Shown piece after piece: positions 11,279 through 63,198 of a stretch of 64,000 nt of DNA. Origin of the DNA: Dehalococcoidia bacterium (GTDB lineage Bacteria > Chloroflexota > Dehalococcoidia > SHYD01); NCBI GenBank assembly GCA_965261835.1, contig OZ253478.1, forward strand, positions 1,624,832 to 1,688,831, given 5' to 3'. The first letter of the stretch is position 1, and every line of letters begins with the position of its first letter. The notes beneath the pieces are model-generated. The model ran no database searches. It was not told the origin of the DNA and saw only the letters and a list, made by a program, of their open reading frames with translations. The position numbers and the translations under genes are program-made.

Positions 11279-12231
11279 TTCTTAGCCCTTTGCTCAGTTA
11301 ACCGCCCCCCGGCCTTGCGACGGAGCCATGAGGTGGCCCGCAGGTAGTTGGCCCAGTACGTTTGGTGCGGTCCGTAGTCCTCGGCGATACGGCGCACGTC
11401 CTCGGTGGTGGTAACCTCTCGGCTGCCGTAGACCTCGGCCGCCGCGCGCAGCAGCGTGCTGTCGATACCGAGCGGGCCTTCAGTGCGGCCGAAGCCCTGG
11501 TTCAGCACAAATCCGGCCGACCAGGGGCCGATGCCGGGGATGCTCAATAACCACGCCATCGCCGCTTGGTAGTCACCCGTCCGCAAAGCTGGCTCATCGG
11601 CCACCATGAAGGCGCGGGCCACCTCTTGCACGTAGATGGCCCGCCGCTCATTCTTGATGAGCCAGTGGAGATATGCCGGGTCCGCCGCCGCGATCTCCAG
11701 CGGCCCTGGGAACGCCCAGTGCTCCTGTCCCTCCACTGCCACGCAGCGCCCGAAGGCTCTGGTGAGCGCGCGCCGCATCGCGCCCGCGATGGACATGTGG
11801 TTATGCTGCGTGAGCACGGCCCAGCAGGCCGCCTCGAAGGGAGAGAGCAGCTTCAGGCGGTGGTAGCCGTAGAGCTGGTGTACTACGGCCAGGAACTCCT
11901 GGTCCTGCTGGGCCAGGCTGTACAGCGGCCGCAGGTGATCGCTAAGACCGAGGAAGAAATCGATGCGCTCGTGGGCGGCGGCTTCTCCAGCACGGGTGAT
12001 CGGCTGCGGCGCGTAGAGCGTAGCGGCGAGTTCGGGAGCTTCAGGCGTGCCGCTCCAGTCCACTCGGAAGGCCACCGGCACATCGTCTACCAACAGGGCT
12101 TTGGTGAGCGACGTATCGGTGAGGGTATGGTCGCCGCGCATCGCCCCCGAGGAGCGGAGTAACGCGCAGGTGTGGGCGAAGTCGAAGGGCGGCGCGGCAC
12201 GCAGCGCGCGGGTGCGGACGTGAGCGGTCAT
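11263..12231 (-). CDS. alkA: DNA-3-methyladenine glycosylase II-like (HhH-GPD superfamily, AlkA-like)
   Basis: C-terminal HhH-GPD region LLSIPGIGPWSAGFVLNQGFGRTEGPLGIDSTLLRAA and an AlkA-like N-terminal domain. Confidence 0.6.
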   Translation of the reverse strand: MTAHVRTRALRAAPPFDFAHTCALLRSSGAMRGDHTLTDTSLTKALLVDDVPVAFRVDWSGTPEAPELAATLYAPQPITRAGEAAAHERIDFFLGLSDHLRPLYSLAQQDQEFLAVVHQLYGYHRLKLLSPFEAACWAVLTQHNHMSIAGAMRRALTRAFGRCVAVEGQEHWAFPGPLEIAAADPAYLHWLIKNERRAIYVQEVARAFMVADEPALRTGDYQAAMAWLLSIPGIGPWSAGFVLNQGFGRTEGPLGIDSTLLRAAAEVYGSREVTTTEDVRRIAEDYGPHQTYWANYLRATSWLRRKAGGRLTEQRAKKRPSL

Positions 12232-12390
12232 GGGGGTAGTATAGCGCGAGCGCTTGCCCCGTCCCCAAGCCTTACCCTCCGGCCCCGTTCCACTCCCTGC
12301 GACACGCTCGGGACAGGCGCTGGCACTCCCCGTGCACTACTTGCCACTAACGGCTCACCACCGCCTGGCAACGCCTGATAGCCCGCGGCT

Positions 12391-12420
12391 ACCCGTTACC
12401 CGCTACCCGCTACCCGCTAC
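12391..12420. repeat. tandem heptamer repeat (ACCCGCT, about 4 copies) over the stop codon and 3-prime flank of the LLM gene
   Basis: acccgtt acccgct acccgct acccgct ac. Confidence 0.6.
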
Positions 12421-13559
12421 TTCTTCCCGAAGTGTGGCATCACTTCTTTAGCAAAGGTGGTGAGTTGCGCCATGAACTCCTTGGCGGGCACGCCTTCCGG
12501 CCAATGAATCATCACGTGCTCCAGGCCGGGGAACTCCTCCTCGTAGGCCTTGAGCTCTTTGACCACCAGGTCCGGGGGGCCGCACAGCCAGGCGCGTTGG
12601 TGAATGCCGTCCTCGATAGTGGGCTGGTGGGCGGGTGCGCCGGGCGTTCCCCAAGTGCGGCCATTCTCGTCGGCGTAGCGCACGAAGCCGAAGGGGGCGA
12701 ACCACTTGTAGCGCTCATCGTGATAAGGGCGCACGCCCTCCATCGCCTGCTGCTGGGTCGGAGCAATGTACATGCCCAAACCTAGGCAGAGGTCCTGGCC
12801 TAGGGCCAGCGTGCGGCCGGCCTTTGCCGCCTCATCTTGGTAGGTGTGGAACACGTCCCGGGTGATCCTGTCGCCGTTCAAGGTCACCATGCCCTTGATC
12901 CCCCGCTGCGCAATGTAGGGGAGCGTCCTCCCACTGGCAATGGGCTGCCAGATCTCCACGGGCAGATACTTGGGCCGAGGGATGAGGGTAATGTCGGTGG
13001 GGACGTAATCCCGGAAGGGAACGGGGGCTGGGAGAGTGTAGTACTTGCCCTGATGGCTAAAAGACTCCTGGTTGAAGGCCTTTAAGATGATCTCCATCTG
13101 CTCTTCGAAGATCTCTCGGTTGGCGACGGTGTCGAGCAACGGGCCGCCCAGGGTCTCCACCTCCCGGGTCTGGTAGCCGCGGCCTACGCCAAAGATGACG
13201 CGCCCGTCGGTGAGGTGGTCGGCCAGGGCATAGTCCTCAGCCAAGCGGATGGGGTGCCACATGGGCGTGACGTTGAAGGCGCAGCCCAGCTTGAGCTGCT
13301 GAGTGCGGGCCGCCAAATAGGTGCCCCACAGGATAAGGTTGGGGATGACCTCGTAGCCCTCCCGCTGGAAGTGGTGCTCGGCGCCCCATAGCGCGTAGAA
13401 CCCCAGCTCGTCCATGTGCTGGGCCACGTCCAGCGACATGCCGTAGGCCTCGGCGATCTTCTCGTTGGGGTAGTTGCGCTCGTTCGCGGGCGTGCCATTC
13501 AGTCCGATGTTGTCCAGCTCGACAAAGCCGACGTAGAGCACCGAGAACTTGTCGATCAT
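12417..13559 (-). CDS. LLM-class flavin-dependent oxidoreductase (luciferase-like monooxygenase family)
   Basis: 380 aa. N-terminal FSVLYVGFVEL, then GFYALWGAEHHF...IFGVGRGY, the typical bacterial-luciferase TIM-barrel pattern. Confidence 0.8.
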   Translation of the reverse strand: MIDKFSVLYVGFVELDNIGLNGTPANERNYPNEKIAEAYGMSLDVAQHMDELGFYALWGAEHHFQREGYEVIPNLILWGTYLAARTQQLKLGCAFNVTPMWHPIRLAEDYALADHLTDGRVIFGVGRGYQTREVETLGGPLLDTVANREIFEEQMEIILKAFNQESFSHQGKYYTLPAPVPFRDYVPTDITLIPRPKYLPVEIWQPIASGRTLPYIAQRGIKGMVTLNGDRITRDVFHTYQDEAAKAGRTLALGQDLCLGLGMYIAPTQQQAMEGVRPYHDERYKWFAPFGFVRYADENGRTWGTPGAPAHQPTIEDGIHQRAWLCGPPDLVVKELKAYEEEFPGLEHVMIHWPEGVPAKEFMAQLTTFAKEVMPHFGKK

Positions 13560-13782
13560 GACGTGCCTCCTGCCGCAGGGGAGTATGTTGGAGTGATTAT
13601 ACGAAAGGCGGGGGCGGAAGGCATCTTTTTGGAGGGGTGGACTATCTCCCCCTCTTAGCGGGAGCCGTAGAGAGTCGGCCTACTAAGTGCGGTACGCGCC
13701 GGGAGAAGGGATACTTAATCTTCCCTTCGAGTTGAATTGAGATAAGGGGAAAGGGTTCGTGACGGTTGGCGGCTGAGCGCCG

Positions 13783-14682
13783 CTACCGCCCGCTCGGCGG
13801 GTCGTCGTCCTGGCGGAAGAACTCCTCGACGCTGCGGAGGATGTCGTCGCTCTGGAGCGGTTCGCCGGAGGCGGGGCGTTCTCCGGAGGGGAGATCGGCC
13901 GGGGCGGCCTGTTCGAGCTGGCCTACGTATTCGCGCAACTGCGGATTCTCCTTCAGCGCCTCGTTCACCTGCTGGGTGAGCTCGAAGCCCCGCTTCATCA
14001 ACGGCTGGATGTCCACTGAGACCTTGCATAAGGCGGTGAGCCGCCAGAGCACTTGGTGCCAGACCTTGGGGTTGGCGGTCTGGATGTAGTGGGGCGCCCG
14101 TCCCCAGATGCTAGCCGCAGGAAGGCCCCGCTCCTGGGCAGCCATCATGAGCGCGGTAATGATGCCGGTGGGGCCGAAGTAGCTGGTGGGGGTGACGTTC
14201 ATACGCTCTAGCTCCGCCAGCAGCTCCTGGTTGGGCGAGGTGCCGGAGCACTGGACGTCGCCCGTGTGGGAGACCGAGTCGTAGAGGCCGCCCACGGCGC
14301 AGAGGCGGCTAACGCCCAGTTCCGCGGCCAGGTCTAGCACCGTGCGGGTGTAGGTGGGCCACTTGAGGTCCGGCTCCGATCCCAGCAGCAGCACTAGGTC
14401 CCTGGGGGCGTCCGGGTTCACCCAGTAGAAGAACTCGGTGGCGGGGTAGGTAAAGCTGCGCACCTTTCCCTTTTCGATGGCCACCTTGGGACGGGTGCTG
14501 GTGTACTTGAAGAACTCCTCGCCTTCCAGCTCAGCGAACTTGTGCGCCCGCAGCTTATCCCGCAGGTACTTCACGCTGCCAGTGGACACCTCGGCCGCGT
14601 CGGTCCAGCCGCCCAGGCCAATGACGAGGCTAGGGCTGCGGAGATCGGGGACGTCGGCAGTGCGGCGGAGCAGGTCAGGCAT
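13783..14682 (-). CDS. PAC2-family protein (proteasome assembly chaperone-2-like)
   Basis: N-terminal PSLVIGLGGWTDAAEVSTGSV matches the PAC2 (PF09754) signature (GW.DAG). Confidence 0.7.
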   Translation of the reverse strand: MPDLLRRTADVPDLRSPSLVIGLGGWTDAAEVSTGSVKYLRDKLRAHKFAELEGEEFFKYTSTRPKVAIEKGKVRSFTYPATEFFYWVNPDAPRDLVLLLGSEPDLKWPTYTRTVLDLAAELGVSRLCAVGGLYDSVSHTGDVQCSGTSPNQELLAELERMNVTPTSYFGPTGIITALMMAAQERGLPAASIWGRAPHYIQTANPKVWHQVLWRLTALCKVSVDIQPLMKRGFELTQQVNEALKENPQLREYVGQLEQAAPADLPSGERPASGEPLQSDDILRSVEEFFRQDDDPPSGR

Positions 14683-55885: not shown

Positions 55886-55900
55886 CGGAACTACCGCGCA

Positions 55901-55947
55901 GTGACACAGTACAGGGGGCCTTTAAGACGCCCCCTGTACTGTGTCAC
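55901..55947. terminator. long perfect hairpin (18-bp stem) between secF and the convergent HerA-like gene
   Basis: GTGACACAGTACAGGGGG-cctttaagacg-CCCCCTGTACTGTGTCAC. Confidence 0.6.
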
Positions 55948-55995
55948 CTGATTATCTGAATGGGAAATTTACAATCCCACCACTATCGCTTAACA

Positions 55996-57408
55996 CTATC
56001 TTCCAAACAGATCTCGCGCATCGCGTTCCGCCTGTCGCTCTAGTTCCGCCGCTTCCAGAAACCCGAACTCCCGGTAGCTCTCCGGGCTGCCGTATTCCCG
56101 GGTCCGCAACACCACCGGCATGGGCACCGCGTGGCCAAAGATGAGGGCCTGCTGTTTGCTCTCCAGGCGTGACAGCACGCTCCGCAGCTGGCTGGAGCCG
56201 GAGGCCCCGGTCAGCACCGCGGAGAGGTCCTTCTCATCGTCCAGCAGACAGGTGATCTTGGTACCGATCTGCGACAGCACCTCGGGGTCGATAGCGCTGG
56301 GCCGCTGATCCACTACCAGCAGGGTCACTTTGTACTTGCGCATCTCCCGAGCAATGGTGCCAAAGATGGTCTGCCCGGCCATGCGGGGGTTGAGGAACTT
56401 GTGGGCCTCCTCCAAGGTGATCACTAGGTGCGGCGGCTCCGCTGCGGCCTCGCCTAGGGCCCGCTCCATCCGGTCTGCCCAGCGTTGGTAGATGCGGCGG
56501 CTCAGCAGGTTCGCCACCAGCACCTGCGCCAGAGGATTGTTCTTGTACTTGCCGAACTCCAGAACCACGGTCTTGCCCCGCTCCAGGTAGTCCATGAGTT
56601 GCTGAATAGCGTCTCCTTCGACGCCTGGGGTGAGGAACTCCAGCCGAGTCAGATAGCGCAGCCGCCTTTGGAGCGCTTCTATCGCGCCACCGTGGAGGTT
56701 GCTCTGACCGGCCAAGTCCTTTAGGCCTTCGCCATCCATGTCGATGAACGTCCCAAACCAGTCTCGTCCGCCAATGACCCGGCGGATCGCATCGATAGAC
56801 TGCACCGCCACTTCGGAGAGGCCTAGCGCCTCCTGGAGATCGGCGATATCGTCCGGCTCGAGCTCGTGGTACCCGATGCGCACCGTGCCGTCGATATTAA
56901 CCCGGCGGGCGTGGGAGCTCTGCTCGTCCAGAGTGAACACCGTGACCTGGGAGCCAAAGAGCTGCTTCAGGCCCTTTACGCTGCCGTGCACCTCCTCGGT
57001 GGTGCCCATCCAGCCGTACTCGTTGTGCATATCGAAGATAAGCTGGACGCCGGCGCTCTTTTGGAGGATGCCCGCCATGAGAATGCGGGTCAGGAAGGTC
57101 TTGCCGGTGCCCGTCTTGCCGAAAACACCGCTACTGCGTTCCACCAATCGTGGCAGGTTGAGGCGGATCTGGGTGCTATCCATGTCCAGCGGGCTGCCGA
57201 TCCACAGGTGGTCCCGGTCCTCATCGCCGAAGATCCCCTCGATCTCCTCCTTAGTTGCGAAGAACGCGGGCGCATAGTGTGGCGGCACAGTACGCACCGG
57301 ATGGGGCTCCTTGGGCCCCAGTGGTCCCAGCGCCAGGGTGGGTACCAAATGCGCCAGCCCGAAGGTGCCCGCGCCGCGCAGCACCGCCCGCACCAGCGGG
57401 TTGTTCAC
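55996..57408 (-). CDS. HerA/DUF87-family FtsK-like ATPase (ATPase portion; the N-terminal HAS-barrel appears to lie in the adjacent overlapping ORF)
   Basis: Walker A GVFGKTGTGKTFL. HLVITLEEAHKFLNP ... LLVVDQRPSAIDPEVLSQIGTKITCLLDDEKD matches the DUF87/HerA core. GTG start overlaps the stop of the upstream ORF as GTGA. Confidence 0.75.
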   Translation of the reverse strand: MNNPLVRAVLRGAGTFGLAHLVPTLALGPLGPKEPHPVRTVPPHYAPAFFATKEEIEGIFGDEDRDHLWIGSPLDMDSTQIRLNLPRLVERSSGVFGKTGTGKTFLTRILMAGILQKSAGVQLIFDMHNEYGWMGTTEEVHGSVKGLKQLFGSQVTVFTLDEQSSHARRVNIDGTVRIGYHELEPDDIADLQEALGLSEVAVQSIDAIRRVIGGRDWFGTFIDMDGEGLKDLAGQSNLHGGAIEALQRRLRYLTRLEFLTPGVEGDAIQQLMDYLERGKTVVLEFGKYKNNPLAQVLVANLLSRRIYQRWADRMERALGEAAAEPPHLVITLEEAHKFLNPRMAGQTIFGTIAREMRKYKVTLLVVDQRPSAIDPEVLSQIGTKITCLLDDEKDLSAVLTGASGSSQLRSVLSRLESKQQALIFGHAVPMPVVLRTREYGSPESYREFGFLEAAELERQAERDARDLFGR

Positions 57409-57662
57409 GTCCGGCGGCGTGGTGGTGAGCGCTTGATCGGTGCGCCTAGCTCCAGATCGGACACCACGCAGAAGAAGCGGCTCTGCTCACCCTGCACGAT
57501 GGCGTACTGCCCCACCTTCACGTCCTCCAGTGGGACCTCGGCATCCAACCGGAGGTCTAGTCCATCTTTCAGCGACCCGCTGACCACCATACCCAGCGGA
57601 CGCGGCTCCGCGGGGTCCGACTGCGCTGGAGTGTCCGGAAAGAAATCGGAGAACTGGGTCAC
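57405..57662 (-). CDS. small ORF resembling a HAS-barrel (HerA N-terminal) domain; may be the frameshifted 5-prime part of the HerA-like gene
   Basis: GMVVSGSLKDGLDLRLDAEVPLEDVKVGQYAIVQGEQSRFFCVVSDLELG fits the G.V..G.....VG.YV.V....F.GVV barrel pattern. ATGA overlap with the upstream ORF and GTGA overlap with the downstream one. Confidence 0.4.
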   Translation of the reverse strand: MTQFSDFFPDTPAQSDPAEPRPLGMVVSGSLKDGLDLRLDAEVPLEDVKVGQYAIVQGEQSRFFCVVSDLELGAPIKRSPPRRRT

Positions 57663-58252
57663 GCCAGCCGCTCCAACAGCGCGTTCAGCCGCACCGACTC
57701 GCCCCGCAGCAGCGCCACTAGCCGTTTGCCGGCCCGCACCTGGAAGTCCATGCCCTGCGGCCCGCGCACCGCTGCGCCATAGCGGAGGAAGGCGGCGGTT
57801 ACTTCATCAGTGGCGCCCTGGCTCTGCCCTGCCAGCAGCAGTGGCAGAAACCCCAAGGCCTCGGTAAAGTCGGCAACTTCATTCGGTTCGCACACATAAA
57901 CCAGCTGGTGGATCTCCGGCGGCAGCGGCGGGAAATAATGGCTAATCCCGCCGTCCTGGCTGAATCCCAGCACCTTCACATCGAAGTGAGTGCGAAACAG
58001 CTCTTGCAACTGCGGATGCTGCTGGTAAATCTCTGCCATCGAGCTTGCCTCTCGCCCACGCGCCACGGAGCGGCGAGTAGGGTCCAGCGCCTCTGTGGCA
58101 ATGCCGGTGACCACACCGTAGATGGTCACCGCCTCCTCCGGCCCCTGCGCCGCCTTCACCAGCGATCCGAAAGGTGGCGCAGCGTGCAGCGTATGGCTCT
58201 CTGCCGTGTATCCAGCAGTGGCGGTCTGAATAACTTCGCCTATTTTAGACAT
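57659..58252 (-). CDS. hypothetical protein with an N-terminal HAS-barrel-like segment
   Basis: IGEVIQTATAGYTAESHTL...FGSLVKAA...VTIYGVVTGIAT is alignable by eye to the HerA / F1-ATPase N-terminal beta-barrel pattern. The remainder is unknown. Confidence 0.4.
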   Translation of the reverse strand: MSKIGEVIQTATAGYTAESHTLHAAPPFGSLVKAAQGPEEAVTIYGVVTGIATEALDPTRRSVARGREASSMAEIYQQHPQLQELFRTHFDVKVLGFSQDGGISHYFPPLPPEIHQLVYVCEPNEVADFTEALGFLPLLLAGQSQGATDEVTAAFLRYGAAVRGPQGMDFQVRAGKRLVALLRGESVRLNALLERLA

Positions 58253-58277
58253 GAACCGTCCTGCGAGACTCGCTTGC

Positions 58278-59045
58278 TTATTGCACTACCAGCCCGCCGT
58301 CCACGGCCAAAGCGTGGCCGGTGACGAAAGACGCGGCGTCGGAGGAGAGCCACAGCACCGCCTCGGCCACCTCTTCCGAGGTGCACAGGCGACCGCCCGG
58401 TTGCCGCACCATCATCCGCTCCTCCAGCGCCGCGTCCCGTTCCATGTACTGGTTGGTCATGTTAGTGGGGATCCAGCTAGGGCAGACCGCGTTGATCCGG
58501 ATATTCCGTCCGGCGACCTCCACGGCGGAGGCTTTGGTAAGACCCACCACGCCATGCTTGCTGGCGATGTAGGCCACGCCCACGCGGCTGCCGATAAGCC
58601 CGGCCACCGACGCCGTGTTCACGATTGCACCGCCGCCCTGGGCCAGCATTTGCCGCAACTCGTGCTTGACGCAGAGCCAGACGCCCTTGAGATTCACGCC
58701 GATGACCTGATCCCAAACCGCTTCCTGGTAGTCCGCGGCCTGCACGAACATGGTACCGCCGAGGCCGGCGTTGTTGAACGCACAATCCAGCCGCCCGTAG
58801 GCCGCAACCGCCGCTGCCACCAGCGCGGTCACATCGGCGTCTTTAGTGACGTCTGCGGCCACAAAACGGGCGTCCGGTGCGCCAGCGGCCTTGGCCGCGG
58901 CGGCGGTCGCCTGGCCGGCCTCCTCACTCACATCCGAGATGATGAGCTTAGCCCCGGCCTTAGCGTACGCCAATGCCGTCACCCGCCCGATATCACCGCC
59001 ACCGCCCGTAATGAGCACCGACTTACCCCGAAGATCGTCATACAT
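58278..59045 (-). CDS. SDR-family oxidoreductase
   Basis: ITGGGGDIGR Rossmann motif, NNAG, and YIASKHG (YxxxK). Ends 25 bp upstream of the HAS-barrel ORF. Confidence 0.85.
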   Translation of the reverse strand: MYDDLRGKSVLITGGGGDIGRVTALAYAKAGAKLIISDVSEEAGQATAAAAKAAGAPDARFVAADVTKDADVTALVAAAVAAYGRLDCAFNNAGLGGTMFVQAADYQEAVWDQVIGVNLKGVWLCVKHELRQMLAQGGGAIVNTASVAGLIGSRVGVAYIASKHGVVGLTKASAVEVAGRNIRINAVCPSWIPTNMTNQYMERDAALEERMMVRQPGGRLCTSEEVAEAVLWLSSDAASFVTGHALAVDGGLVVQ

Positions 59046-59421
59046 AGCAGCCTCTCTTTGAAACTAACGCACAATCATGCAGCAATAGCTAGCGGTGCGG
59101 CCCATTTTTTCTTGAACGTTCTGAGAAGTCATTCTAGAAATAGTGGCTAACTCGCCTCGCCCTAATTGATACTCACTCAACCCGCTCTGTTGTTACCCGT
59201 ACCTCATTAGCGGGTGCTTCCACACACTCGATACCTAGGGTACCATCCCATAGTAACGGCGGGCACAATAGTTGAGCACTACGCTATTACGAGCCAGGAT
59301 ATGGCAGCAGCATAGTGGTTACCGCTCCTTTGAGAGGAGACCTCTAGTGAGCCCGCCGACCTTGTGGGGCTTGCCGGACTGGGGCCTAGGCGAGGGGTGA
59401 AAAGGGCTCGATGCTGCTCGC

Positions 59422-60459
59422 TTAGGAATAGGGCACCCGCTTGCTGACCGATTTGGCCGAGTGCGCCACCGGCAACCCCTGCGCCTCCATCCGGCGCGAG
59501 ACCAGCTGCCAGAAGGCCTGCCGGTCCGCCTCGGTCACCACTGCCTGCTGATGCGCCTCCATCAACGCCACGGGATACCCGAAGTTCCGGCGGCACTGGT
59601 CCACCACCGCGGCGTGAGTGAAGTCGAGCAGATCGGGGTTGTAGCGCACCCAGGCCGGCACCTCCACGCGGCCGATCTCCCAGCCCGTGTTCACGTAGAA
59701 GTACCAGATCTGGTTCTCCGTTGGCTGGTAATCTTTCAGCAGCAGCCGCTGGCTTTTGAATACCTCCGAACGGCCACCTTCCGGGAGCACACTGAACACG
59801 TCTCGGTCCAGCAGCTCCCGCTCGGTCTTGGGATAATCCACCACTTTCTCGAGGTACTCCCTGCTCCGCGGCGCCGACGCGTAGCTGGCTACCGCCAGCG
59901 TTCTCGCCTGCGCCAACAGCCGAAGCTGGTCCAGGTAGTCGACATATTGCTTGACATAAAGCTCCGTATCGCTCTGGTAGCTGTAGATCCACAGCATCAA
60001 CGACCCATCTTGGAGCGCAAGTGCAGGGGCATCGTCCGGCGTGGCTTTGGTCAGCTTCAGCAGGCCCTCCAGCTCAGCCACCGAGCGCTCCAGATCGATG
60101 TGAATGCGTCCGGCTGTCTCCGCCGAGTCGTCATCCACCGGCTCTTGCGGGCTTGCCGAGGCGTCTTCGGCGGCAAGGCGCGGTGAGCTGGACAGCGCAG
60201 CATGAGAGACAGGTCCGTACCGCAGCGTAACTTCCCCCACATTGATCAGATAGCACTGTAGCGGGGCGTGGCGGTCCAGCTCTATCTGCGAGCCATCGGT
60301 GGCAAGGGTAACGTACTCGTCGGGTGGGGTTGGGCGGGGGACCATGGTTAGGCCCTGCTGAAGCCGCAGCAGCGCCTCCTGGTAGTCCTTTCCCGCTGGC
60401 GCGCGCCGTTGCAGCAACGGATCTAGCTGCGCATTAACGTGAGCGAGGTCCAGACTCAT
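59422..60459 (-). CDS. NurA-like nuclease (putative)
   Basis: The ATDGSQ motif about 55 residues from the N-terminus, a conserved acidic cluster, a His-containing helix near the C-terminus (ALMEAHQQAV) and a size of 345 aa are consistent with the NurA domain. Lies in the same strand neighbourhood as a HerA-like ATPase. Confidence 0.45.
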   Translation of the reverse strand: MSLDLAHVNAQLDPLLQRRAPAGKDYQEALLRLQQGLTMVPRPTPPDEYVTLATDGSQIELDRHAPLQCYLINVGEVTLRYGPVSHAALSSSPRLAAEDASASPQEPVDDDSAETAGRIHIDLERSVAELEGLLKLTKATPDDAPALALQDGSLMLWIYSYQSDTELYVKQYVDYLDQLRLLAQARTLAVASYASAPRSREYLEKVVDYPKTERELLDRDVFSVLPEGGRSEVFKSQRLLLKDYQPTENQIWYFYVNTGWEIGRVEVPAWVRYNPDLLDFTHAAVVDQCRRNFGYPVALMEAHQQAVVTEADRQAFWQLVSRRMEAQGLPVAHSAKSVSKRVPYS

Positions 60460-60556
60460 TGTGACTCCTCTACAGGGGGACGAACGGGTTCGACAGGCTC
60501 AAAGTGGGCGGGGGGAAACCAAGCCCATCGCCAATGCCAGCGTGACGACATGTGGC

Positions 60557-61342
60557 CTAGCGCCAGGGTGGCGGGCCGGCGGTCTGGAAGGTGCGGTAGA
60601 GCATGTGGTATGTGCCGTTCATGAAATCGACACACTCCCGCAGCAGCACGCGGCAGATCTGCAGACCGTCCACGGTGTAGCGCAGCGGACCAGCGCGCTT
60701 GAACTCGGGCAACCAAACCCGCCAGCGCAACCCGGTCTCATCCGATGCGGTGCGTAGCGGCAGATAACCGCTCTCCCGAAAGACGCTTAGGTAGTTAAAC
60801 GCCAGCCTCAGTGCATTCGCCTGAATACCGGTTAGCCACACCGCCAGCGCCGGATGCGCCGCCTGTACCGTACGCAACGCGGTGCGGCGCGGCGCGGTGA
60901 ACCGGAGCCAGGTACCCGAGCCGGGTTCTATCCCGAACAGGCACTCCACCTCCCAGGCCAGCCGGTCCAGCGCCGCACAGAGTCCGTTGAAATACTGATA
61001 CAGGAACGGTTGGATGCGTGAAGGATCGAGGTGGTTGGCGAGATCGGTAGACTGCGTAGCCATGACGGAACGTTGGCGATCCTCCCAAGGCTCCAGGGTC
61101 TCGGCAGCTGGGTCTGCGGCGCGCACTGCCGGCGCTTCAGCCGAGGGCGTCTGCGCTGGCAACGGGCGGCGCACCAGCACGTCCAATGCGTTCATCGCTT
61201 GCAGCGCATTAGCCAAGCGTAGCGTCAGCGGGTTGCCACTCTCGCTTTCCAGGGCAAAGGGCGTATCATGCAGCGCCTCACAAAGCAGCTCTTGGTACGG
61301 GAACACGCCCGGCTCATAGGCTTCGTAGTAGTTGTAATTCAC
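60557..61342 (-). CDS. hypothetical protein, translationally coupled to selB
   Basis: 261 aa with coding-like GC3. Its start overlaps the selB stop (ATGA). No recognisable motif. Confidence 0.5.
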   Translation of the reverse strand: MNYNYYEAYEPGVFPYQELLCEALHDTPFALESESGNPLTLRLANALQAMNALDVLVRRPLPAQTPSAEAPAVRAADPAAETLEPWEDRQRSVMATQSTDLANHLDPSRIQPFLYQYFNGLCAALDRLAWEVECLFGIEPGSGTWLRFTAPRRTALRTVQAAHPALAVWLTGIQANALRLAFNYLSVFRESGYLPLRTASDETGLRWRVWLPEFKRAGPLRYTVDGLQICRVLLRECVDFMNGTYHMLYRTFQTAGPPPWR

Positions 61343-63198
61343 CGAAGCACTCGTTGATCACCAACCCGGCGCGTGAGGTGCTGCTGGTCCAAGTATTCCA
61401 TCAGGGCCAGGGCATATTTTCGGCTCGTGTTGAACATATCCCGTACCTCAGCAACGGTAATGGTACGGTTTTTTTGCAAATGCGCCGTGATCTTGCTCAC
61501 CATCTCCTGATAGGCCGGCGCGCTGAAGTAGATAGATTCACCAACCCGGACCAGCCGCCCCTGGTCCGTCAGCACGTTCGCAATGTCAGCTTCAAAGGGC
61601 AGATCGCTGGGCGGCGAATAGGGCGTCAGCTCCAGCGCCGCCAGCAATTGGCGCGCCTGCTGCTGTTGCGACGGGCTTAGCGCCACTTCATAGCCCGGCA
61701 GGCACACTACAGCGCCGCGTTCCTCCACCATGCCTTCTTGCACCATTAAGTCCAGCGCGTCCGCGGCGGCACGCCCCGGCAGCCGGAGGCGGCTCCGCAG
61801 TTCCTCTTTGGACATCCCGGCCCGTAGCGGTGACGCCTTGTGGAACTCGGCCAGCAGTCGCAGCGCGTGGTCATTCAACCGCTGCCACGTGGCCCGATCC
61901 ATCACCAGCGAGTGGGGATCGGCCAACCGTCCGTTCAGCGCCACCGCATCGCCTTGCTTAACCAGCTGGGAGAGGGTGCGTTCGGCCTCTTCGTGTGATA
62001 TGGCCGCGGTCTTCAGCAGCGTGCCGGCCTCCACCGGTCCCCGAGCCAACTGCTGGAGCATGACACCCTCCGGCGTCCCCTGCGCCAGGGTCTGCAGCGA
62101 GGCGAGGGTGGGCTGGTGGAAGCGCCGGTGCCGTTTGGCTTGGGGCTCCACCACCGTGCCACCGCCAATGGTGCCAAAGGCGGAGCGGATGATGAACGCA
62201 TCGCCCTTGCAGAGCACCAACGGGAACTGCACCCGCAGCTGCGCCCAGCCAACTGCGCCCGGCTCCAGCTCATTAGCATCCAGGAGCCGGAGCTTGGCGG
62301 GCGTCTCGCTTGCCAGCAAGTGCACGGTGCACGAGGCATTGTGGCGCAACGGGTTCGGCACCTCTTTCAGCAACCGAACCTGCGCGTCGAAGACGGTGAT
62401 AGGCCGCAGCCAGCCTGGCGTGGTCACCACGTTGCCTCTTGCCAGGTCCTCGGTGGACACGTTGGTCAGGTTCGCCGCCACCCGGCTGCCCGGCGACGCC
62501 ACGTCCACCTTGTGCCGGTGGGTCTGCAACCCGCGGAGCCGAGTCTTGATCCCCTGGGGCAACAGTTCCACCTCCTGCCCTGTCCGCAGCGAGCCGTCGA
62601 TGAGGGTTCCCGTGACCACAGTGCCAAAACCGGCGATGGTGAACACCCGGTCCACCGGCAATCGCGGCCGGCCGGTGTCCCGTCTAGGAGTCGCCTCTTG
62701 GAGCAGCCCGTCCAAGACGTCCAGCAGCTCTGGCAAACCCTGCCCGGTCACGGCGGATACCGCCAGCAGTGGCGCGTCCGCCAGAGTGGTGCCCTCGAAG
62801 GCGGACCTTACGTCAGCGGTCACTAACTCCAGCCACTCCTCGTCCACTATGTCCCGCTTGGTGAGCACGATGACACCCCGCTCGACCCCCAGCAGGTCGA
62901 GGATGGCGAGGTGCTCCCGGGTCTGGGGCATCATGCCCTCGTCCGCTGCCACAATAAACAGCGCAAGGTCGATGCCGCCCACACCCGCCAGCATATTCTT
63001 AACGAACCGCTCATGGCCGGGGACATCCACAATGCTGACCTCGCGGCCGCTGGGCAGCTTGAGCCACGCGAAGCCGAGGTCGATGGTCATACCCCGCTCT
63101 TTCTCTTCGCGCAAGCGGTCGGGATCGATGCCGGTGAGCGCCTGAACCAGCGTGGATTTGCCGTGGTCTACGTGGCCGGCAGTGCCAATGACGAACAT
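61339..63198 (-). CDS. selB: selenocysteine-specific translation elongation factor SelB
   Basis: G-domain GHVDHGKSTL...DVPGHERF...TKRD. Domains II-III. A long C-terminal winged-helix region ending in ...TRRVGDQRVLR. Confidence 0.9.
   Translation of the reverse strand: MFVIGTAGHVDHGKSTLVQALTGIDPDRLREEKERGMTIDLGFAWLKLPSGREVSIVDVPGHERFVKNMLAGVGGIDLALFIVAADEGMMPQTREHLAILDLLGVERGVIVLTKRDIVDEEWLELVTADVRSAFEGTTLADAPLLAVSAVTGQGLPELLDVLDGLLQEATPRRDTGRPRLPVDRVFTIAGFGTVVTGTLIDGSLRTGQEVELLPQGIKTRLRGLQTHRHKVDVASPGSRVAANLTNVSTEDLARGNVVTTPGWLRPITVFDAQVRLLKEVPNPLRHNASCTVHLLASETPAKLRLLDANELEPGAVGWAQLRVQFPLVLCKGDAFIIRSAFGTIGGGTVVEPQAKRHRRFHQPTLASLQTLAQGTPEGVMLQQLARGPVEAGTLLKTAAISHEEAERTLSQLVKQGDAVALNGRLADPHSLVMDRATWQRLNDHALRLLAEFHKASPLRAGMSKEELRSRLRLPGRAAADALDLMVQEGMVEERGAVVCLPGYEVALSPSQQQQARQLLAALELTPYSPPSDLPFEADIANVLTDQGRLVRVGESIYFSAPAYQEMVSKITAHLQKNRTITVAEVRDMFNTSRKYALALMEYLDQQHLTRRVGDQRVLR

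Follow-up and report, generated by a model that had tools for sequence, protein, structure and literature searches.

A chromosomal nurA-herA gene set with a free-standing HAS-barrel protein in a Dehalococcoidia bacterium

A 64,000-nucleotide stretch of a Dehalococcoidia bacterium of the Chloroflexota (contig OZ253478.1, positions 1,624,832 to 1,688,831; hereafter the window) carries genes for a NurA-like nuclease and a HerA-type ATPase, with a 197-amino-acid protein (hereafter p197) encoded between them. An original prediction made from the sequence had listed, in order from selB, a 261-amino-acid open reading frame (ORF), the nuclease, a spacer of lower GC content, an SDR-family oxidoreductase, p197, and two overlapping ORFs of 85 and 470 amino acids, the first resembling a HAS barrel and the second a HerA/DUF87 ATPase. 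Each of these ORFs is present in the ORF list at the positions then given, on the minus strand (Table 1), and profile searches assign NurA, HerA, the SDR and selB as predicted, the last two unambiguously. The five proteins of the NurA/HerA cluster are in fact four genes and a frameshift. The locus is most likely a chromosomal gene set for DNA end processing, made up of a NurA nuclease and a HerA motor.

Table 1. Genes and other features of the nurA-herA region, in window coordinates
Feature	Position	Strand	Match or remark
selB	61339-63198	minus	TIGR00475, 354 bits
261-amino-acid ORF	60557-61342	minus	no Pfam, NCBIfam or PADLOC match
nurA, 345 amino acids	59422-60459	minus	PF09376, E 3.8e-23
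Lower-GC spacer between nurA and the SDR gene, 376 bp	59046-59421	minus	
SDR-family oxidoreductase, 255 amino acids	58278-59045	minus	adh_short_C2, E 6e-60
p197, 197 amino acids	57659-58252	minus	predicted HAS barrel and C-terminal helical domain, no ATPase
herA (555 amino acids if intact)	55996-57662	minus	HerA/FtsK-type ATPase, HAS barrel and DUF87
85-amino-acid ORF (5' part of broken herA)	57405-57662	minus	HAS barrel, E 5e-5
470-amino-acid ORF (3' part of broken herA)	55996-57408	minus	DUF87/HerA, E 8.9e-30
Single-base deletion site in herA	57440-57444	minus	DNA alignment with L001/L002

NurA scores 82.7 bits against the PF09376 cut-off of 21. It contains the ATDGSQ motif together with conserved acidic and histidine residues, and eleven positions are invariant in 15 aligned NurA proteins from comparable loci (D55, R63, H64, E129, D151, E261, E266, H282, D287, E301 and H303), and these are residues of catalytic type. 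No relative of NurA in the PDB was detectable by sequence search. HerA carries the Walker A motif GKTGTGKT and the Walker B motif EEAH, and these and its other motifs are invariant across the HerA alignment; its sequence matches in the PDB are all HerA proteins. The pairing of the two proteins proposed in the original prediction is therefore upheld by the PF09376, DUF87 and PDB matches. Exact-sequence look-ups of the window NurA and of the 261- and 85-amino-acid products returned no record. Most NurA proteins of these loci have about 400 residues and possess two further elements, a helical segment at the N-terminus and an insert rich in Cys (CPx5DCxRCPW...IPC, likely a Zn-binding motif; L009, L013, L017, L025 and others were compared). 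The NurA proteins of the window and of L004 have lost both elements, and that of L005 retains a degenerate version of them.

The original prediction placed the barrel and the ATPase of HerA on separate overlapping ORFs, a claim that falls on comparison with near-identical strains. Two long metagenomic contigs, L001 and L002, were retrieved by exact-sequence look-up of p197. Identity to the window is 98.9% and 98.7%, respectively, across 7.4 kb, and 98.7% and 98.5% across 16.4 kb; both contigs share its gene order, with herA as a single ORF of 555 codons. DNA alignment reveals one base missing from the window herA near position 57442 (GGCG[T]CACC to GGCGCACC), where the relatives read GGCGTCACC. 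Upstream of its GTG, the 470-amino-acid frame reads ...TDQALTTTPPDVNNPLV, identical to intact HerA. The HAS-barrel match of the 85-amino-acid ORF reaches 23.8 bits, slightly below the cut-off of 25.2; the intact HerA of the relatives matches DUF87 (E 5e-29) and, weakly, the HAS barrel, and the HerA of L025 has a HAS barrel above the Pfam cut-off. Because the near-identical contigs carry a single 555-amino-acid HerA, the split is not a design feature of the system.

Could the two-ORF herA nevertheless be genuine, its halves being made separately and reassembling, or the full protein being restored by a programmed frameshift? The two ORFs overlap by GTGA, which could permit re-initiation. The deletion is the sole frame-breaking coding indel in the 16.4 kb shared with L001 and L002, so that coding frameshifts are not a general fault of the assembly, and the broken gene has no excess of non-synonymous change against the near-identical strains, in counts too small to tell whether it is decaying. 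However, herA is one ORF in both of these independent assemblies and in every other lineage examined. The break falls at about residue 73, within a barrel spanning about residues 24 to 115, and GGCGCACC is not a slippery heptamer. The indels that separate the window from both relatives at 55942, 57442, 59209, 59303-59312 and 59403, the 1-bp ones included, are all deletions in the window, and only that in herA lies in coding sequence; this pattern between 55.9 and 59.4 kb fits deletion-type assembly errors. A genuinely split herA is thus barely credible; the deletion either stems from an error in the assembly or marks a pseudogene specific to this strain.

The additional barrel-containing protein of the original prediction is real. 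The p197 of the window gives a weak HAS-barrel match (E 0.013), and 22 of 41 diverse family members match PF09378, with a best E of 2.7e-9. A HMMER profile search found 1009 cluster representatives at E<=1e-3, 676 of them at E<=1e-10, and nearly all family members are 190-215 amino acids long. A word-indexed search found 16 relatives in metagenome-assembled genomes of Chloroflexi and Dehalococcoidia, every one annotated as “hypothetical protein.” Neither NCBIfam nor PADLOC holds a model for p197, and Pfam offers the HAS barrel alone. Neither a third NurA-HerA component nor a stand-alone HAS barrel was found in the literature searched, the scope of which stopped short of the FtsK-HerA comparison of Iyer et al. 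(2004).

The AlphaFold2 model of p197 (14 homologues; pLDDT 87, pTM 0.82) is made up of a β-barrel, a conserved basic loop modelled at low confidence and a C-terminal helical domain. The loop reads LDPxRRxxARG, and R60 within it is invariant. The top 50 Foldseek matches of the model are all HerA proteins, with 130-160 aligned columns, and a profile search of PDB sequences with the p197 family returned nothing; the relation is visible by fold comparison only. No DUF87 or AAA match was found in p197, and the model consists of barrel and helices, with no RecA-like ATPase core or P-loop. With its PF09378 sequence match and an N-terminal barrel fold of the HerA/ATP-synthase type, p197 belongs among HAS-barrel proteins, and as modelled it corresponds to a portion of HerA without itself being a HerA. 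To our knowledge, the N-terminal crown barrels of F1/V1/FliI-type ATPases are always fused to the ATPase, whereas the barrel of p197 is predicted to stand free and to carry a separate helical domain. A Zn site at H79/H105/H115/C121, suggested by close homologues, was dropped on finding that H79 and H105 are not conserved across the family.

Among longer family members, Pfam identifies one chimera with a periplasmic-binding domain, one NurA-p197 fusion (P0147) and otherwise nothing. P0147 is a metagenomic protein of 372 amino acids whose single ORF joins the C-terminal part of a NurA domain (E 1.4e-13) to a complete HAS-barrel protein of the p197 type, either as a natural fusion or through metagenomic read-through.

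The association of the three genes extends well beyond the window. Scanning one genome of each GTDB species by pattern gave 42 loci with a p197 relative, and addition of those from exact look-ups brings the total to 45 distinct loci from Chloroflexota, Gemmatimonadota, Latescibacterota and Abditibacteriaceae. Linkage was counted in loci with at least 1.5 kb of sequence downstream (n=40) or upstream (n=43) of p197. herA directly follows p197 in 36 of the 40, at a gap of less than 200 bp in 34, and 4-bp overlaps of the two genes are common across loci, the window included, where the p197 stop and herA start form a GTGA that is visible in the sequence. On the other side, nurA lies upstream on the same strand in 37 of 43 loci and within 300 bp in 25. 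At least 30 distinct loci, spread over the four phyla, have nurA and herA on the same strand in this order, and in all-against-all clustering of ORFs no real gene families are shared more widely than p197, HerA and NurA. Of the two outcomes that the original prediction had named as refuting it, a lack of NurA or HerA profile matches and a lack of co-location in relatives, neither occurred.

Some loci extend this cassette and others lack part of it. In three Chloroflexota loci (L009, L011 and L012), nurA-p197-herA is followed by mre11/rad50-type genes, the first a Metallophos gene (Mre11/SbcD-type) and the second matching SMC_N/AAA_23/SbcC_Walker_B (Rad50/SbcC-type). Such genes are missing from most loci, and none lies within the window. 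The pair nurA-p197 occurs with no adjacent herA in L016 (Thermomicrobiales) and L053.

The SDR gene, listed in the original prediction within the same apparent operon, does not belong to the conserved core. It is present within the operon in only three of about 45 lineages (the window, L007 and L052), and is absent from the locus in L004, L005, L009 and all other phyla; the protein scores 307 bits against PRK06172, under the cut-off of 336. A part in the module within the window's own clade, for instance by acting on a nucleotide or cofactor ligand, would be consistent with orthologous SDRs, 57-71% identical, occupying this position in three lineages among which p197 identity is no more than 51-56%, and with the 4-bp ATGA overlap of the SDR stop and the p197 start in L007 and L052. 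This is very improbable, however, given that the comparably related L004 and L005 and every other phylum do without the gene, that unrelated inserts occupy the nurA/p197 junction elsewhere and that the SDR matches generic oxidoreductase families. We read the SDR gene as a lineage-restricted insert at a permissive junction. This junction seems to be an insertion hot spot, with the SDR of the window as one such insert. L028 has a 90-amino-acid ORF there, HicB-antitoxin-like by eye (L028:7470-7742); five Latescibacterota loci (L029, L035, L039, L040 and L047) have an equivalent gap of about 510 bp; and L031, L037, L038 and L048 carry inserts of 1.1-3.7 kb.

The spacer adjoining the SDR gene has a GC content of 0.556-0.592 compared with about 0.62-0.65 nearby, in keeping with its original description, and differs from the near-identical strains by several small indels. 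Rfam, promoter and terminator scans, which covered both the region and the spacer, yielded nothing beyond chance matches below threshold, with no RNA family and no consensus promoter. A hairpin at 55897-55951 (plus strand), within the 110 bp that separate the converging genes secF and herA, was picked up only through sub-threshold matches to miRNA families (27 bits, gathering score 82) and is probably a terminator shared by the two genes.

Upstream of nurA, the 261-amino-acid ORF begins with a GTG that overlaps the selB stop as GTGA. Homologues are limited to two clusters in a search of 5.8 billion proteins, the L005 protein and fragments in L004; the gene is confined to one Chloroflexota clade, always between selB and nurA, and appears to be a lineage-specific addition. 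The protein has strongly conserved ends (N-terminal YYxxxEPGVFPxQxxLCxAL and C-terminal NxxYHxL...GPPPW, as seen in P0167 and L005:5842-6687) and a variable, Ala/Pro-rich middle. Its AlphaFold2 model, made with the sole usable homologue, is unusable (pLDDT 40). In L004, the closest distinct lineage, the homologue is broken into two pieces, each an ORF fragment, and an insertion sequence lies just downstream; this element (HTH_Tnp_1 and rve transposase genes, L004:4890-6235) separates the 261-amino-acid-type remnant from nurA.

A different gene, encoding about 185 amino acids, stands directly upstream of nurA in L017 (5913-6467), L022 (5116-5718), L025 (6144-6701) and 21 further loci of Latescibacterota, Gemmatimonadota and one Dehalococcoidia metagenome-assembled genome, with a mean column identity of 76%. 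The N-terminal part of this protein has no family match and is STAS-like by eye (motif DFSxVEFIDISCADEF), and its C-terminal part contains a winged-helix region that weakly matches archaeal regulators of the Sta1/Lrs14 type (E 7e-5). The protein may regulate the cassette. Kinship with the 261-amino-acid protein was considered and rejected, the two being unrelated on comparison.

HerA ATPases also drive anti-phage systems, an alternative that the original prediction had raised. Is the cassette a defence system, with a HerA hexamer as scaffold or sensor activating a NurA effector and p197 as an extra regulator? The best PDB sequence match of HerA is the anti-phage HerA of a SIR2/HerA system (8wiv, E 1.4e-20), and its best NCBIfam and PADLOC matches are HerA_antiphage and the PADLOC HerA models. 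Downstream of herA in L005, a Chloroflexi metagenome-assembled genome, two N6_N4 DNA methyltransferase genes are accompanied by a MazE/PIN pair (11577-14609), the sole defence-like neighbourhood among the loci, and the cassettes of some Latescibacterota contain inserted HicB-like ORFs. However, all of these profile scores are far below the family cut-offs (85.5 against 800 bits for HerA_antiphage) and come chiefly from the generic C-terminal ATPase part, and archaeal repair HerAs match the window HerA nearly as well as the anti-phage HerAs do. PADLOC gives generic HerA matches only, with no family for NurA or p197, and the neighbours in the window are NurA, p197 and the SDR rather than SIR2 or DUF4297. 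The cassette is flanked by housekeeping genes: nuo genes and selB precede it, and beyond herA come secDF and the genes for the CCA enzyme, def and priA. Synteny from selB to secDF is kept across divergent Chloroflexota, in lineages whose HerA is 66-68% identical to the window type, and the context is also conserved within Latescibacterota. p197 was not found among 72,556 plasmids, 50,697 phages or IMG/VR, and HerA gave one weak partial match in the plasmids. A role in DNA end processing is therefore favoured over defence, on the strength of the missing SIR2/DUF4297 neighbours, the stable context, the mre11/rad50 genes that join the operon in three loci and the absence from mobile elements. Anti-phage defence is a distinctly unlikely function for the cassette.

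How might the three proteins work together? In the archaeal and Deinococcus complexes, the HAS barrels of six HerA subunits form the docking face for a NurA dimer, and double-stranded DNA is pumped into the nuclease (PMC9960219). By analogy, HerA of the cassette would be a hexameric translocase of double-stranded DNA that feeds DNA ends to a NurA dimer docked on the barrel face, and NurA action would yield resected ends for recombination. p197, translationally coupled to herA, would be a stoichiometric partner of this complex. Its having the same barrel, its coupling to herA and its usual adjacency to nurA suggest a place at the HerA/NurA interface, where it could act as a barrel ring or adaptor, or it could dock NurA alone; as an extra ring, adaptor or competitor it may gate or regulate access of NurA. 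Possible contacts of the invariant Arg-rich loop are DNA and the acidic barrel of HerA, residues 1-120 of which have a pI of 4.3. We infer physical association of the proteins, ring formation and a role in end resection from the genes and the models. The cassette is firmly established by comparative genomics and by the predicted fold, and it is probably a vertically inherited, chromosomal NurA-HerA end-resection module of a Chloroflexota bacterium, with p197 as a proposed third subunit.

Several observations weigh against this account. Solitary p197 genes, with neither herA nor nurA adjacent, make up about 10% of loci (L015, L024, L049 and L054), and at least 24 of the 45 loci come from Latescibacterota alone, so that the linkage counts are not independent and are inflated. 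The window HerA reaches only 76.5 bits against the 970-bit cut-off of NCBIfam helicase_HerA (NF040819), and 69.8 against the 800 of HerA_Thermprot (NF040937); these scores place it in a subfamily distinct from the archaeal orthologues. The herA of this strain may also have lost its function. What bacterial NurA-HerA does in vivo is a matter of dispute, since deletion mutants of Deinococcus and Thermus have modest or improved resistance (PMC9960219). Finally, profile-profile comparison by hhalign detects no sequence similarity between the p197 family and the N-terminus of the cognate HerA, and the apparent kinship of the two lies in fold and Pfam matches. p197 is consequently not a recent duplicate of its neighbour's N-terminus, an origin that was considered and rejected; it is instead a long-diverged, stand-alone form of the N-terminal region of HerA.

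Alternatively, p197 might work primarily with NurA, as a motor-less HAS-barrel platform for a HerA-independent nuclease or for sequestration of NurA, its adjacency to herA being a by-product. The nurA-p197 pairs of L016 and L053 and the fused ORF of P0147 are in line with this, and suggest that NurA may be a direct partner of p197; in solved complexes, the HAS barrel of HerA is the surface on which NurA docks (PMC9960219). However, p197 is tied more closely to herA, with which 4-bp overlaps are common, than to nurA, from which it can be separated by inserts of 0.5-3.7 kb. herA may lie elsewhere in the genomes of L016 and L053, and the single fusion could be a metagenomic frameshift. A mainly NurA-directed p197 is accordingly fairly unlikely. 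A serious possibility is that a widespread bacterial machine of NurA and HerA, joined in some cases by Mre11-Rad50, has p197 as a third subunit not recognised before, in which case p197 would act as a motor-less ring or adaptor controlling access of the nuclease to DNA.

The archaeal HerA-NurA(-Mre11-Rad50) system (Sulfolobus 4D2I; Thermococcus kodakarensis 9X1L) likewise combines a NurA-domain nuclease with a HAS-barrel/DUF87 HerA, and both structures are among the best PDB sequence matches of the window HerA (E 6e-17 and 2.6e-16). Archaeal operons include mre11/rad50-type genes, as do the three extended Chloroflexota loci. In contrast to the archaeal system, the present cassette is bacterial, falls under the NCBIfam equivalog cut-offs and has a NurA with no sequence-detectable relative in the PDB. 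It also has p197 between nurA and herA, and no such archaeal gene is mentioned in the literature found.

The NurA-HerA of Deinococcus-Thermus (7F6D, 7WRW; PMC9960219) is likewise encoded by a bacterial chromosomal nurA-herA operon. In that system HerA is hexameric and NurA docks on its HAS-barrel face, and the present cassette is likened to it from genes and predictions. The Deinococcus-Thermus operon is described with two genes (PMC9960219), to which the present cassette adds p197. The Deinococcus protein, DrHerA, is not among the sequence matches of the window HerA at E<=0.01, which points to a separate HerA lineage.

Anti-phage HerA proteins, as in SIR2-HerA/Nezha (8J4U, 8WIV), DUF4297-HerA (8ZIQ, 9C1M) and TdpAB (8WET), have the same HerA architecture. 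Their hexamers pair with an effector at the barrel side, and they are among the best sequence and fold matches here. However, the partner in the present cassette is NurA and not SIR2, DUF4297 or TdpB, no PADLOC match was obtained for the partners, and the genes reside in a stable housekeeping context away from mobile elements. The original prediction had matched the arrangement to no described system. This stands as far as p197 is concerned, which is absent from the literature searched, and fails for the split herA and the SDR, which are not features of the system; a false lead is thereby removed.

Among bacterial NurA-HerA systems, only the Deinococcus-Thermus pair has been characterized, and its knockout phenotypes are puzzlingly weak (PMC9960219). 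The loci described here point to a separate bacterial NurA-HerA lineage in several phyla, nearly always accompanied by a third, herA-coupled gene, and give a functional context to at least 1000 sequence clusters now annotated as “hypothetical protein.” p197 resembles, as a separate protein, the surface of HerA to which NurA binds, offering a testable idea of how docking of a nuclease on a ring translocase may be regulated. If p197 is indeed a third subunit, the picture of two components that archaea and Deinococcus have given would miss a part of the machine in Chloroflexota, Gemmatimonadota, Latescibacterota and Abditibacteriaceae, and probably in more groups.

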